Source of the DNA: Octopus sinensis
Lineage: Eukaryota
Length of the DNA: 64,000 nt
Assembly: GCF_006345805.1 (NCBI RefSeq)
Contig: NC_042999.1
Coordinates: 160,642,001-160,706,000 of the forward strand
Reading direction: 5' to 3'
This document shows, piece by piece, positions 10,701 through 46,700 of the stretch. The stretch's first letter is position 1, and each line of letters begins with the position of its first letter. Under the pieces are notes generated by a model, which had not been told where the DNA came from, made no database searches, and saw only the letters and a list, made by a program, of their open reading frames with translations. The translations under genes were made by a program, and so were the position numbers.

Positions 10701-13700
10701 TTTCACTGATCTTTAGCTTTATGTTAACAGCCGTTGAATGAATTACAGTGACCTCCTAATACGCCACAAGACACTTTCTTTTGTCCGGAAAATGGGGGAT
10801 GGGATGGGGTGGAACCCTCAGAAATTTCACCCCCCCCATTCCCAACATTTTGCAGAAATATGTTTTCAACAGTGTGGATTACATGGTTCGTTATTAAATA
10901 TACAGAGTGTTCAAAAAAGTCTGTCTGCATTAAGTATTTTATTGCAAAATAAATATTTTTAAGATGGTGTAAGACTACAAAAGAATATATTAGACTTTAC
11001 AAGACTTTAAAAAACTTTACAAGAGGTGTTGAAAGTATTGTCCTTCATTTTCAGTACATAAGTTGACTCTTCTACACATGTTTTGAAATACATCAGGATG
11101 AACAAAATTCACTATGGAGAGACATTTTGAACACCCTGTATATTTACTGGTTGGTATATTTACTATGGGAATTAATGTTAGCATTTATACAGCATGTATT
11201 TTATGCTAAAAGCATTTTTTCTAAAGTCGTAGTCTACAAAATGTGTGTGTGTGTGTGTATGCATATATATATATATATATATAATATTAAAAAAAAACCA
11301 CTTTTTATCAATTCAAAATGAATAATTAAATTACACCATCTGGAAAATTACATTAATAGAAAAGTTAAAATTCAAATAACAATTAAAAGTAAAGATTAAG
11401 TAAATTACAAGAATAATATAATGTATATAATAGGTAGAAAAACGACACGTGTTTCGCTGCTATATTTAAGAAATGATTGTAGTAGTAGTATTTTTAACCT
11501 GATGAGCGACTATATTTATATGCAAGTGATTTCTCTACTACTATAATCATTTCTTAAATATAGCAGCGAAACACATGTCATTTTTCTACCTATTATATAC
11601 ATTATATTATTCTTGTAATTTACTTAATCTTTACTTTTAATTGTTATTTGAATTTTAACTTTTCTATTAATGTAATTTTCTAGATGGTGTAATTTAATTA
11701 TTCATTTTGAATTGATAAAAGGTGGGTTTTTTCTAATATTTTATATATATTATATTGTGTGGAATTTGATTTAGTATTTCTAAATTGAATTCTTTTTCCT
11801 TGTAAGTTTGGATTTTATTCCCTCAAATAATAATTATGTATATATATATATATATATATATATATATATATATATCATATCATATATATATATGAGTGTG
11901 CATGTATATGTGGATAAGAAAAGTACTTATTACATACCTTATTTATTTATTTATTTACTGCCCACAAGGCGCTAAACACAGAGGGGACAAATGGATTAAG
12001 TCGATTATATTGACCCCAGTGCATAACTGGTACTTATTTAATTGACCCCGAAAGGATGAAAGGCAAAGTTGACCTCAGCAGAATTTGAACTCAGAACGTA
12101 GCGGCAGATGAAATATCACTAAGGATTTCACCCGGCGTGCTAATGTTTCTGCCAGCTTGCCGCCTAAAATTATTACATACCTTGCTGTCAAATCATTGGA
12201 TTAATCCCAACAAATTACAAACTTTTTTCTAAATTTTATCAATATACTAGCAGTATCGCCCGGCGTTGCTCAGGTTTGTAAGGGAAATAACTATATAAGC
12301 ATTTTTAGAGAGTTACTTCCCTTATATAACCCGAGCAAAAATCATTAAAAATGCAGAAAAATGATGGTAAATTTTTTTAAATCGTAGACTCATCGTAGAC
12401 GCGCGCTGATACCCAGAAGGGCTCGATATGAATGACAACTATAAGATGCCCGCTTTTGGTTAAACTGCACCGCAAAATGTGGGAGTAGTTAGGAATCTAA
12501 ATCGGAGGAGACAGAGTCTCACACACACAACTTCAATTTTATATATAAAGATATATTTGCTCAACTTTCAGTTTGTGGGTCAGTGTTTTAGAAAAAAAAA
12601 CAAAAAGACTTTCATTTTGGATATTCCCCACTCAAACTCAAATTGTGCTTCATTTTTGTGAGTGAGGGGAGGAGAAAGAGAAAGAGAGAGAGAGAGAATA
12701 AAAGTTTTCTCTCTACAAAGAAGTGATTTAAAATAAACATACCTTAATTGTTGTGTGAGAAAATATATATATTCTGATAATAATTTATTGTATCTTTTAA
12801 AAATATCCTTAATGTACAGACTATATCTTGTGTGTTTAAGAAAAGAAAAAAATTTGCTTTCTTTTCCACAGTACTGTGTGTGTGAGAGAGAGAAAGAGAG
12901 AGAGAGAGCGAGAGAGAGAGAGAGGAATCATCATCATCATCGTTTAGCGTCTGCTTTCCATGCTAGCATGGGTTGGACAGTTCAACTGGGGTCTGGGAAG
13001 CCAGAAGGCTGCACCAAGCCCAGTTTGATCTGGCAATGTTTCTACGGCTGGATGCCCTTCCTAACGCCAACCACTCCATGAGTGTAGTCAGATCATAAAA
13101 ATAAGGAAGTGACATTTGTAGAGCTATCTCCAAAGATTAACAATGTGCAACTTTTAGTCTCTCTCTTTCCCTCTCTCACCCCTCACACACAAAAATGAAA
13201 CTCAATTCAAGTTTGAGTGGGAATATCTAAAGCAAAAGTTTTTTTTTGCTTTCTAAAACGTTGGATCACAGCCTGAAATGTTAAGTCGAACAAATATGTA
13301 TATTGATAAAATTTAGAAAGAAGTTTGTATTTTGTTGGGATTAATCCAACGATTTTCTTGTCTACATATACATACACACTCTTATATACATACATATATA
13401 TATTTTCTTTATTTGTGAATTAAGGCTACCATTGGTTTCATGTTAAGAAGAGTAGGGAAATATCCAAGTGTCTTAATTTTTCAAGCTGATCACATGGAGA
13501 AAGGTGTTTGCTTCCATTATAGAAAGCAATCTCCATGTGACTGGCTTGAAAAATTGTTAAGACACTTGGATATTTCCCTACTTTTCTTAACATGAAACCA
13601 ATGGTAGCCTTAATTCACAAATGAAGAAATTATTTATCCACCAATGCAGTGTTGAGCACTCATTCCATCATTCTACATTTATGTATGTGTATATATATAT

Positions 13701-43700: not shown

Positions 43701-46700
43701 TCTCTCTCTCTCTCTATATATATATATATATATATATCTCAACTGGACCCCCCTCCCCAACTCAACTCTAGAATATCTGTATTTCTTTCCTCTACCTAAT
43801 TACGTTATCAGTGACGATAAATCTGTGACTACAAAGACCGGGCTGCTTTCTGCAGCATTCCACATACCCCCTACCCATTGTACAGGATCCCCAAAGTACC
43901 CTGGATCCCCAAAGTACCCCGATCCCCAAAATACCCCGGACCTTGCCCCCGTTAAATGCTCGAACCGATCGTGACGATGCCGGACCCTCCGGCCCCTTGC
44001 AGGTGGCACGTAAAAAGCACCCAATCCACTCACGGAGTGGTTGGCGTTAGGAGGGCATCCAGCCGTAGAAACTCTGCCAGATTCAGACTGGAGCCTGGTG
44101 CGGCCCCTGCTCCCAGACCCGGTCAAACCGTCCAACCCGTGCTAGCGCGGAAAGCGGACGTTATATATGATGATGATATGATGATATATATATATATATA
44201 TATATTGATCAAAATAAAAACATGATGCCAAGGATTCAGCGGTACATATGTTTCGGGCCTTTATTAGACAGATTTATAGCAATGCATAATGTATGTCTGT
44301 GGCCTTCTTCAGCCGCGCACAACAGCTTCCACAAGGACATGTGTTACATCAAAAATTCTTCCCACCCTTCCAATTTTCAGCTCCCCCCGCCCGCCCCTAC
44401 GTGGGCACCTTTAGCACACACCTTTAACTTTACACTTTCAACCACCTTTTATCTTTTCCTTCATCTCATATTAAGCTTTACCCGATTATATTTTTATTTT
44501 ACTTTATCCTATTCTATTTCGCTTTACCTTTATTCTTATTTTTATTTTCATTCCTTATTTTAATTCTTATAGTTCTTATAATTTTTATATTTTATTTCTA
44601 ACTTTTATATTGTATTTCTTATTTTATATTGTATTTCTTACTTTTATTTCTAATTTTTATTCTTACCCTCATTCTTACCCCTAACTTATCGCTTTATATC
44701 TCTATATATGTCTATTTTTTTGCGTATCCCTTATTTACTTATCTATGGATCCGCTTTATGATTATACGTACATTTGTGTACGTATGTATACGTATACATA
44801 TGTGTACATACGTACGAGTAAACATCTACGTCTGGATGGGCATACCCCGTTACTCATCTCTAATAATTTTCTTTAATAATTTTTTAAAATTCCTTACGTA
44901 TTTCTTTACATCTTTTTACATGTTTTCGCAGATTTCTTATATGCATATGTTTACACATATTTGCATACATCTTAATATCTTATAGCTATACCTATACGCG
45001 CGAATGTCTCTGTGTGTGTATGTAAGTGTATATGTGCACGCACATATGGACACACAGCCGTGTGTGCGTGCACGTGTAGACGTGAGTGCGTGATTCTTTA
45101 CATACGTTCTTATATACATCCTTTAATATCTTATATCTAAACCTGGATGTGTGGGCATCTGTGTATGTGTATGTAAGGATGGACGTACGTATGTATATAT
45201 GGGTGTGTGTATATGCGTATGTATGTATAGGTATACATGTGCATATATGTATGCATGTGTGTATGTGTATATGTATATGTGTATGTGCGTGTGTGTGTGT
45301 ATATGTATTTATATATATATATGTACACGTATAATGTCCGTGTATATATGCGCATATTCTGTTGTATGGATGTATATATGCGCATGTGTGTGGGTGTATA
45401 TGTGTTTATGTACATGTTTACACGTGAGTACGTATGTATGCTTATATGCTTGGAGCTGTGTATGCACGCGTGTATATGGGTGTATGTATCCATGCTGGTA
45501 TGTATGTACAAGATGACCACTTAATTCAAGGAACTAGATTAACTGCTCAACAGCTCTGATTTACAATACACTAGGTCCCCAGACGCCCCTGTTGATTTAT
45601 TGACACCCAAAGCTTCTACAACTAAATTTGGTCATTTTCCTGACCACCATGTTTGGTCCGTAACCTCTATACATCCCTTATCTTTATATTTTTTACATTT
45701 TTATCATTTTTATTCCTATTTTATTTTTTTACTTTATTCTTTATATTTCTATTTTACTTTATAACCTTATGCCTTTATATTCATTTATATTTTTTATATT
45801 CTTTATATCCCCTTTATATCTCCTTATATCTCTTTATATCTTTATACTCTACATTTTTATATTTTTATATACTTACAATTTTTATATATTTTTTATCCTT
45901 CGTCCTGAATTCTCGCCCCTCCATCTTTACCCCTATTTACTCTTATTACCAGGTTCCTTCACGTCTATATATGTATTTATTTATTAATTTATTTACATTA
46001 CTTCAACATTCCTCATTCTACATTGAGAGAAGAAAGAGATGGACGCTTCAATTCTATGCTGTTGCCGCATTATGTCGTACGCGAATGAGAGGATTTGCAT
46101 CCCCAACCAAGAATTTTTGATGTAACACATGTCCTTGTGGAAGCTGTTGTGCGCGGCTGAAGAAGGCCACAGACATACATTATGCATTGTTATAAATCTG
46201 TCTAATAAAGGCCCGAAACATATGTACCGCTGAATCCTTGGCATCATGTTTTTATTTTGATCAATTTACTTCACCACCTACACCACCAAACGGTATACAC
46301 AGGTGCTTATAATTATCAAGTACTCACCCCGAATTTATATATATATATATATATATATATATATATATACTTTATTTAAAGCAGCTGAAAATTCACAAAA
46401 CCTGTTACTCTGAGTTTCCCGTTGCCGTTCACCGATGAACGGCAACGGGAAACTCAGAGTAACAAGTTTTGTTGAATTTTCAGCTGCTTTAAATAAAGCA
46501 TATTACTCTACCACTGGTATTTGAGTACTCTTTTTTCCACCTTGTTTCACATTTATGTGTTTACTCTGGAATATATATATATATATATATATATATAGGG
46601 AGAATTCACAAAAAAACAAAAGACGAAGACATGTGGTGTAGGCAACAAACAGATGTATTAGTTTAACACTCGGGAAGTGAAAAAGTCTTAATTGATTAAA

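Follow-up and report, generated by a model that had tools for sequence, protein, structure and literature searches.

Four fold-back elements in Octopus sinensis ATG2 as probable ends of Hydra-type Penelope-like elements, likely twin-primed

A 64,000-nucleotide stretch of Octopus sinensis DNA (hereafter the window; NC_042999.1, positions 160,642,001 to 160,706,000, assembly GCF_006345805.1) contains four fold-back elements, E1 to E4, in introns of the autophagy gene ATG2. Each carries an inverted 5′ copy of its 3′ region, a hammerhead ribozyme motif, complete or partial, and a tail outside the inversion. We conclude that E1 to E4 are very probably 5′-truncated, head-to-head insertions of four families of Penelope-like elements (PLEs) with Hydra-clade motifs, likely twin-primed on one RNA. 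Since the element type is known, its recognition here has annotation value, and two by-products matter more: a wall of 5′ ends at the predicted hammerhead cut site of the E1 family, and a one-tail rule by which the tail stands on exactly one end of an insertion. Overall, the result is a modest mechanistic lead, testable and carried by these two observations.

Anatomy of the elements and their families

All positions are those of the window. E1 consists of a tail-less inverted arm (11273..11488, minus strand; stem III palindrome at 11444-11455) and a forward copy (11461..11838, plus strand), which overlaps the arm at the junction and holds the hammerhead core (11499-11505), a predicted cut after 11579 that is decayed here, and the tail (~11756-11838). 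The E2 arm spans 13400..13500 (minus; inner end approximate; core 13478-13484) and its forward copy 13530..13685 (plus), with a U3-A8 core at 13546-13552, GAAA and stem III at 13594-13606, and the tail at ~13638-13685. The E3 arm (44204..44360, minus) contains a complete hammerhead with its core at 44306-44312, in sense orientation to the ATG2 pre-mRNA, and is followed by the forward copy (44361..46335, plus; core 46157-46163, predicted cut after 46226, tail ~46266-46335). E4 comprises an arm (46370..46431, minus) and a forward copy (46432..46570, plus) with a U4C core at 46432-46438, no 5′ strand of stem I, a predicted cut after 46461 and a tail at ~46499-46570. An unstranded (TA)17 tract (46336..46369) is common to E3 and E4; other TA runs lie at 11835-11893, 13690-13724 and 46571-46597. 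Self-alignment recovers the inverted arms in every element at 84-99% identity: E1 is self-inverted over 11267-11755 (91%), E2 over 13396-13637 (84%) and E4 over 46365-46503 (94%), and in E3 44201-44360 pairs with 46109-46268 (99%). The tails beyond the inversion measure ~83 nt in E1, 45-50 nt in E2, 70 nt in E3 and 67-70 nt in E4 (45-83 nt in all), and BLAST among the four elements found no similarity between any of them. An earlier note on this DNA had described this plan of inverted 5′ copy, outer tail and (TA)n on both sides in four mutually unrelated sequences, and each of these points was borne out. Elsewhere in the window, a tail-only relative of E4 (27440-27545, minus; 86% over 58 nt) lies between TA runs, and 53725-53847 (minus) is a piece of another Hydra-type family, 79% identical to the 3′ end of locus L179. 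The tail region of E1 is 73-75% like that of the L178/L179 families.

The genome was searched with each element; 40 candidates were scored and the 30 best fetched, and the family samples are those best 30. First-look candidates genome-wide numbered 2588 for E1, 2587 for E2, 1946 for E3 and 662 for E4, which are not copy numbers. Within a family the copies have a common 3′ end and a 5′ end that varies from copy to copy, and upstream a PLE open reading frame (ORF) is reached in every family: in locus L122 for E1, L126 for E2, L133/L215/L216 for E3 and L171-L174 for E4, the arm directly adjoining the ORF in L122, L126 and L133. The forward copy of E3 in the window represents its family's non-coding 3′ region of ~2 kb and is 94.7% identical to L130 over 2055 nt. 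Units measure 4739 nt in E3 and 2863, 5626 and 7746 nt in sister families, and a direct 5′ pseudo-long terminal repeat (pLTR) occurs in L215, L225, L186, L181 and L179. Because the longer copies carry a PLE ORF and the 5′ ends vary, the elements are read as truncated PLE ends and not as the non-coding, retrozyme-like families that the earlier note had proposed; judged by their sequences, E1 to E4 are the ends of four different high-copy PLE families, and the copies in the window are most likely inert. The Penelope-like attribution in that note fared better, as the longer copies with reverse transcriptase (RT) and GIY-YIG ORFs that it suggested looking for were found in all four families. TA microsatellite targeting was likewise upheld: of 147 family loci, 124 have TATATA or ATATAT no more than 14 nt from the 3′ end, compared with 7.7% of random positions in the same loci.

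We note that Hydra-type elements of different families adjoin or nest in each other's TA tracts (the L174:3914 region, L194 and L125, and likewise E3/E4). Some insertions are present twice with common flanks (L214/L215, L002, L004/L005, L040/L041, L053/L054), reflecting duplicated assembly or local duplication. Sister families L178, L179, L183 and L185-L187 have open frames that are 748-1124 codons long between stops, and L185/L186 are identical copies on one chromosome, which together suggest recent activity of these sister families.

The clade label comes from motifs compared by eye with the reference proteins in the supplement of PMC8557442. There, Hydra is defined by RWK, DKT, a CxCX5C linker, no CCHH, and CxxC and CxH around E and N, and the clade is described with hammerheads and (TA)n targets; the supplement includes an Octopus bimaculoides member, Hydra-1_Obim, and notes that Penelope-13_HM has an inverted 5′ copy, and the main text describes the inverted copy, with the tail often at one end only. 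In our families, RT motifs are followed by a GIY-YIG-type region in L122 (E1), L126 (E2, decayed), L215/L216 (E3) and L171 (E4). DKT is present in E2 and E3; the E1 locus L122 has AKT, its close relatives L192/L193 have DKT, and the region was not recovered in E4. The CxCX5C linker, no CCHH cysteine pair within GIY-YIG, and CxxC/CxH around E and N were found in E1, E3 and E4, and E2 retains the C-terminal motifs with a decayed linker. By these motifs the E1-E4 families appear to be Hydra-type. The endonuclease is C-terminal in the E families, which lack the marks of Neptune and Naiad (a CX2-5CxxC linker, CCHH and, for Naiad, an N-terminal endonuclease); a Neptune identity was considered and rejected on the Hydra motifs of PMC8557442. 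Pfam matched GIY-YIG in the E1 ORF only (E = 1.8e-4, just under the cut-off) and returned no match for the other long ORFs, five of them in one search. Every named homologue of the E3 protein comes from Octopus.

Two other identities can be weighed at this point. Non-autonomous, retrozyme-like families would be short non-coding hammerhead RNAs that amplify with borrowed PLE proteins, and the majority of copies are indeed short and non-coding, the narrow 5′ walls of E1 and E4 described below give the look of fixed-length units, and retrozymes have been reported as derived from PLE pLTRs (bioRxiv 10.64898/2026.07.22.740005). We nevertheless consider this identity improbable: ORFs are joined in longer copies of all four families, the 5′ junctions are copy-specific, walled and extended E1 copies fall in the same variant classes, and the inspected copies are dispersed rather than arranged in tandem monomer arrays. 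DNA transposons of the miniature inverted-repeat (MITE) or foldback type, bounded by terminal inverted repeats and duplicated TA targets, would account for long inverted arms and for TA on both sides, but here the tail lies outside the inversion, arm length is variable, and arms occur in 68 of the 147 loci, with no arm within 1.5 kb in the other 79. As the families link to RT ORFs, that identity was rejected, and we give it next to no credence.

Hammerhead motifs

Our own hammerhead descriptor, which admits U3-A8 and U4C cores, finds three complete type I hammerheads in the window (E2 at 13546, E3 at 46157 on the plus and 44312 on the minus strand), compared with a chance rate of 0.175 matches per shuffled window (40 shuffles). 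The earlier note had suggested both a descriptor and Rfam as checks; the descriptor thus picked out E2 and both E3 copies, and the Rfam scan of the window gave no hammerhead at E <= 10 and only hairpin microRNA look-alikes below gathering scores. Its claim of a type I hammerhead in every element stands in full for E2, whose core UUGAAAA is the U3-A8 variant, and for E3. It fails in part for E4, whose window copy begins at the core CCGAUGA (U4C) and lacks the 5′ strand of stem I because the inversion junction removed it, and for E1, which is decayed. The (near-)palindromic stem III listed for each element does not hold for the forward copy of E1, which reads ACACATGT, and does hold for the E1 arm and family, where ACACGTGT is found. 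Two private G>A changes in this forward hammerhead abolish the symmetry of stem III and break the closing pair of stem I, which in E1 is only 3 bp long.

At the family level, the CUGANGA/GAAA/UH core with stems I-III is present in all four, as U3-A8 in E2 and U4C in most E4 copies. About 20 different stem contexts were found in 0.95 Mb of fetched DNA, with 116 CU..G, 68 CC..G and 23 UU..A core matches next to the rare uncompensated forms UU..G (1) and CU..A (6). A core-only search, meant to avoid circularity, covered 18 loci, among them four E-family loci picked with the motif known; 5 gave no match and 11 had a palindromic stem III, and in 10 of these 11 stem I had 3-6 bp of differing sequence, while three decoy cores with the same stem III had a stem I of 0 bp. 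The U4C core occurs in E4 and in other families, one with an intact 778-residue frame. Folding by minimum free energy was not significant for the hammerhead regions (z +0.6 to -2.0) and recovered only stem II of E1/E2 and parts of E4; the tail hairpins are weakly supported (z -1.1 to -2.3), and a tail motif common to E2-E4 was, by eye, not general to other families. As self-duplexes the stem III words reach -7.0 to -10.3 kcal/mol, and alone they form no fold, in good agreement with the earlier suggestion that stem III suits a dimer, and the hammerheads are predicted to cleave as dimers via this palindrome. Lunse et al. in 2016 reportedly dealt with PLE hammerhead dimers and may already cover U4C-type variants. 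A U4C variant is noted as weaker in vitro (PMC3088659), and U3-A8 covariation has been reported in Schistosoma PLEs. The ~20 contexts in 0.95 Mb point to many more Hydra-type families in this genome than the 2021 catalogue has for octopus, namely one, and such families are flagged poorly by both Rfam and Pfam.

Insertion ends and the origin of the inversion

Each family has two fixed end positions, A at the end of the tail and B at its start. The arm starts at B, namely at 11754-5 in 8 of 11 E1 cases, at 46502-3 in 26/29 for E4, within 46255-46268 in 14/14 for E3 and within 13625-13637 in 11/14 for E2. The tail is also on the arm in just 3 of 67 tail-selected loci (one short spurious E1 match dropped). 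From 17 E3 loci chosen by their ORF, 7 insertions were resolvable at both ends (L214 counted with L215; L216, L220 and L228 omitted as unresolved), and none of these has two tails or lacks one: the tail is on the arm in 4 and on the forward copy in 3 (Fisher p = 0.029). Where an E3 copy is full-length, its tail opens the 5′ leader of the following unit, and the ATG lies 191 nt past the hammerhead cut site. Common variants agree between the arms of one insertion in 37 of 45 cases for E4 (12% shuffled) and 5 of 5 for E3 (11%), and the one-tail rule, when taken with these shared subfamily variants, fits twin priming on one RNA. We note that at site B the template C is nearly always a T in E4 arms (loci L031-L060; window 46365-46375), and the start therefore appears exact and independent of any pairing between template and TA primer. 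In many families (L171, L183, L125, L177, L080, L135 and E3/E4 examined) the hammerhead cut site is followed by the tail-less end after 33-37 nt, in others after 47-76 nt and in E1 after ~173 nt.

Walls of 5′ ends were counted with queries of the 3′ part only, on the 30 best matches per search. Forward copies of E1 start at or after the predicted cut in 26 of 30 cases, within 14 nt of it in 18 and exactly on it in 4, or 5 if a TA run is discounted, with none at -1 to -6; 18 of 19 E1 arms end past the cut. Three copies read through the cut, the one in the window among them. Both variant classes include walled as well as extended E1 copies, the extended ones leaning to one class in a biased first set. 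The 5′ ends of E4 cluster at -43 to -48 (15/29; 2 longer, none at the cut), those of E3 lie near -186 to -220 (17/29 much longer) and those of E2 near -92 to -112. The E4 and E3 edges fall on what we take to be initiator-like words, which are short and common. Among 16 other families the incidental copies were too few to show a cut-site wall, and F178/179 has a wall near -50 instead. These ends suggest that the E1 copies stopping at the predicted cut likely record self-cleavage in the living animal.

The insertions suggested to us a mechanism in which the element protein likely nicks a (TA)n tract and starts reverse transcription at two points of the same RNA. Priming would be at A from one target strand and at B from its partner, each cDNA would extend toward the RNA 5′ end, and joining of their far ends would yield (TA)n/arm/forward copy/tail/(TA)n. 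Priming within the leader would give short copies, which would therefore end where the RNA begins. The walls would then mark RNA 5′ ends, likely the transcription start for E4 (~-47), E3 (~-212) and E2 (~-105); in E1 the wall would instead mark the hammerhead cut. Penelope is known to have a pLTR promoter that precedes the following unit (PMC2377424). Read jointly, short Hydra insertions would form a genomic primer-extension map of the element RNA, in which the E1 copies are the first trace left in vivo by a PLE hammerhead cutting a transposition template, the other families map transcription starts, and the one-tail rule reflects an asymmetric dimer using two fixed sites of a single RNA to prime both strands of the target. 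We put this joint reading a little below an even chance. If true, asymmetric dimer priming would explain PLE inversions in general, and with E1 stopping at the cut beside read-through families, the role of the PLE hammerhead and the origin of the inversion are testable by insertion counts and simple RNA assays.

Several observations weigh against this account. Arm variants of E1 agree in only 10 of 19 cases (19% shuffled), about half. We interpret the ends as products of one RNA primed at A and B in a coupled way, and the shared variants would fit equally well two same-source RNAs or later conversion. The cut-site wall is seen in one of four families, and E3, with a canonical core, has none at its cut. 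Summed contig depth, admittedly a poor measure, is flat with no clean step at the E1 cut (run X15), and the roughly threefold lower depth upstream of the cut in run X17 is not usable. Contigs from sequencing runs, when aligned, indicate that the sequences are present in several coded organisms and yield no starts, ends or editing. The RWK position reads RIK(R/W)KAY in E1 and RITWAAY in E3 (region not recovered in E2 and E4), RWK being present in 12 of 16 full-length homologues of the E3 protein. For an anole PLE, the relevant parts of PMC11167929 describe that mutating the hammerhead left in vitro insertion unaffected and that reads at the cut were not found.

Some of these points feed two rival explanations. 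The inversions might arise after insertion or from two independent RNAs, without coupled priming on one RNA: the arms copy the same stretch, which on one RNA requires strand displacement, two RNAs could be held together by the stem III dimer, and the E1 arms agree as poorly as stated. The arm start fixed at B, the one-tail rule and the shared subfamily variants are contrary to random later duplication and to RNAs of unrelated source, and we judge such an origin unlikely. As for the E1 wall, it might be a coincident transcription start or a reverse-transcriptase stall on a template that the hammerhead left uncut, a possibility to which we give real weight, short of even. It draws on the walls of the other three families lying away from the cut, on the 3 bp of E1 stem I, and on the indifference of anole PLE insertion in vitro to hammerhead mutants, with no cut-site reads (PMC11167929), but the wall stands at an exact nucleotide, with the counts at 0 and at -1 to -6 given above, and a rough estimate puts the chance of such a match over five families at 1-6%.

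Host gene and relation to known systems

ATG2 lies on the minus strand, is seen over 6140..56296 and runs past both window ends. The exons seen include 56296-56189, 40688-40506, 14253-14137, 14042-13944, 7127-7065 and 6292-6140 (all minus), and with exons on either side each of E1 to E4 is intronic; a VPS13_N search did not locate the start of the gene. The earlier note had singled out their siting within one autophagy gene, which is correct and shows no sign of special significance: as far as the sequence goes, these would be four among many genome-wide insertions in a gene of >140 kb, and nothing suggests more. On the ATG2 sense strand, 11273-11838, 13400-13685 and 46365-46570 form hairpins of 236, 116 and 84 base pairs; the E1, E2 and E4 hairpins are possible ADAR substrates, and such folding would sequester the hammerheads. 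A dispersed repeat of 200-450 nt, with many copies on both strands, is the source of most long inverted pairs in the window (1842-4084, 8653-9064, 15517-15954, 20148-20647, 23583-23972, 30460-30914, 42696-43233, 55471-55917, 61878-62320), and a separate repeat has 64-68 nt tandem units at 9824, 24683, 34606 and 47205. Frames whose motifs resemble those of mariner transposase and LINE fragments lie at 16305-17248 and 47750-48262 (minus) and at 2859-3278, 7281-7826 and 35462-35950.

Literature searches on cephalopod Hydra elements, cut-site truncation and PLE twin priming, which covered few subscription papers, turned up no report of the two points that follow. That E1 copies stop at the hammerhead cut site whereas E4 copies stop ~45 nt upstream is possibly new, and so, possibly, is the one-tail rule. 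In L1 twin priming, a 5′ inversion results from a second priming event on the other strand of the target, as would be the case here; the second L1 site varies and the pieces do not overlap, whereas here the site is fixed and the arms copy the same stretch. Closer is PAc, the Poseidon PLE of Anolis, in which RT starts at two sites that bound the tail and extends both strands; its targets are AT-rich and a dimer is predicted (PMC11167929). PAc belongs to another clade, and its tail lies inside the ORF, whereas ours lies in the 5′ leader; the parts of that paper used here report no strand difference in start site and no in vivo trace of cleavage, whereas the genomic ends here are coupled.

The ribozymes resemble minimal PLE hammerheads (PMC4209133) in being type I with a short stem I, an extra nucleotide after A9, a palindromic stem III and U3-A8 covariation, and in occurring mostly as single motifs in truncated copies, with pairs on opposite strands; U4C cores, which recur in several of our families, do not feature in the sections of that paper used here. 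Non-LTR retrozymes (bioRxiv 10.64898/2026.07.22.740005) share the type I hammerhead and the PLE link, but are tandem non-coding monomers, whereas E1 to E4 are dispersed ends of coding elements. The Hydra clade of PMC8557442 is matched in the C-terminal GIY-YIG, DKT, CxCX5C linker, CxxC..E..N..CxH, (TA)n targets and 3′ hammerhead with palindromic stem III, and E2 and E4 have the stem III sequences that it gives for Hydra-1_oBim and Penelope-3_HM. Hydra-1_oBim has other stems I and II, which indicates different families; that two short Hydra-1_oBim motifs were not found in 1.5 Mb of fetched sequence says little. Compared with the published clade, units are 2.9-7.7 kb rather than generally <3 kb, a description that E3 (4739 nt) and some sister families (5626, 7746 nt) exceed, tails are 45-160 nt rather than 30-40, and the family-wide U3-A8 and U4C cores have no entry in the File S2 table. 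The architecture and the clade are already published, and the octopus families are new members of a known clade.

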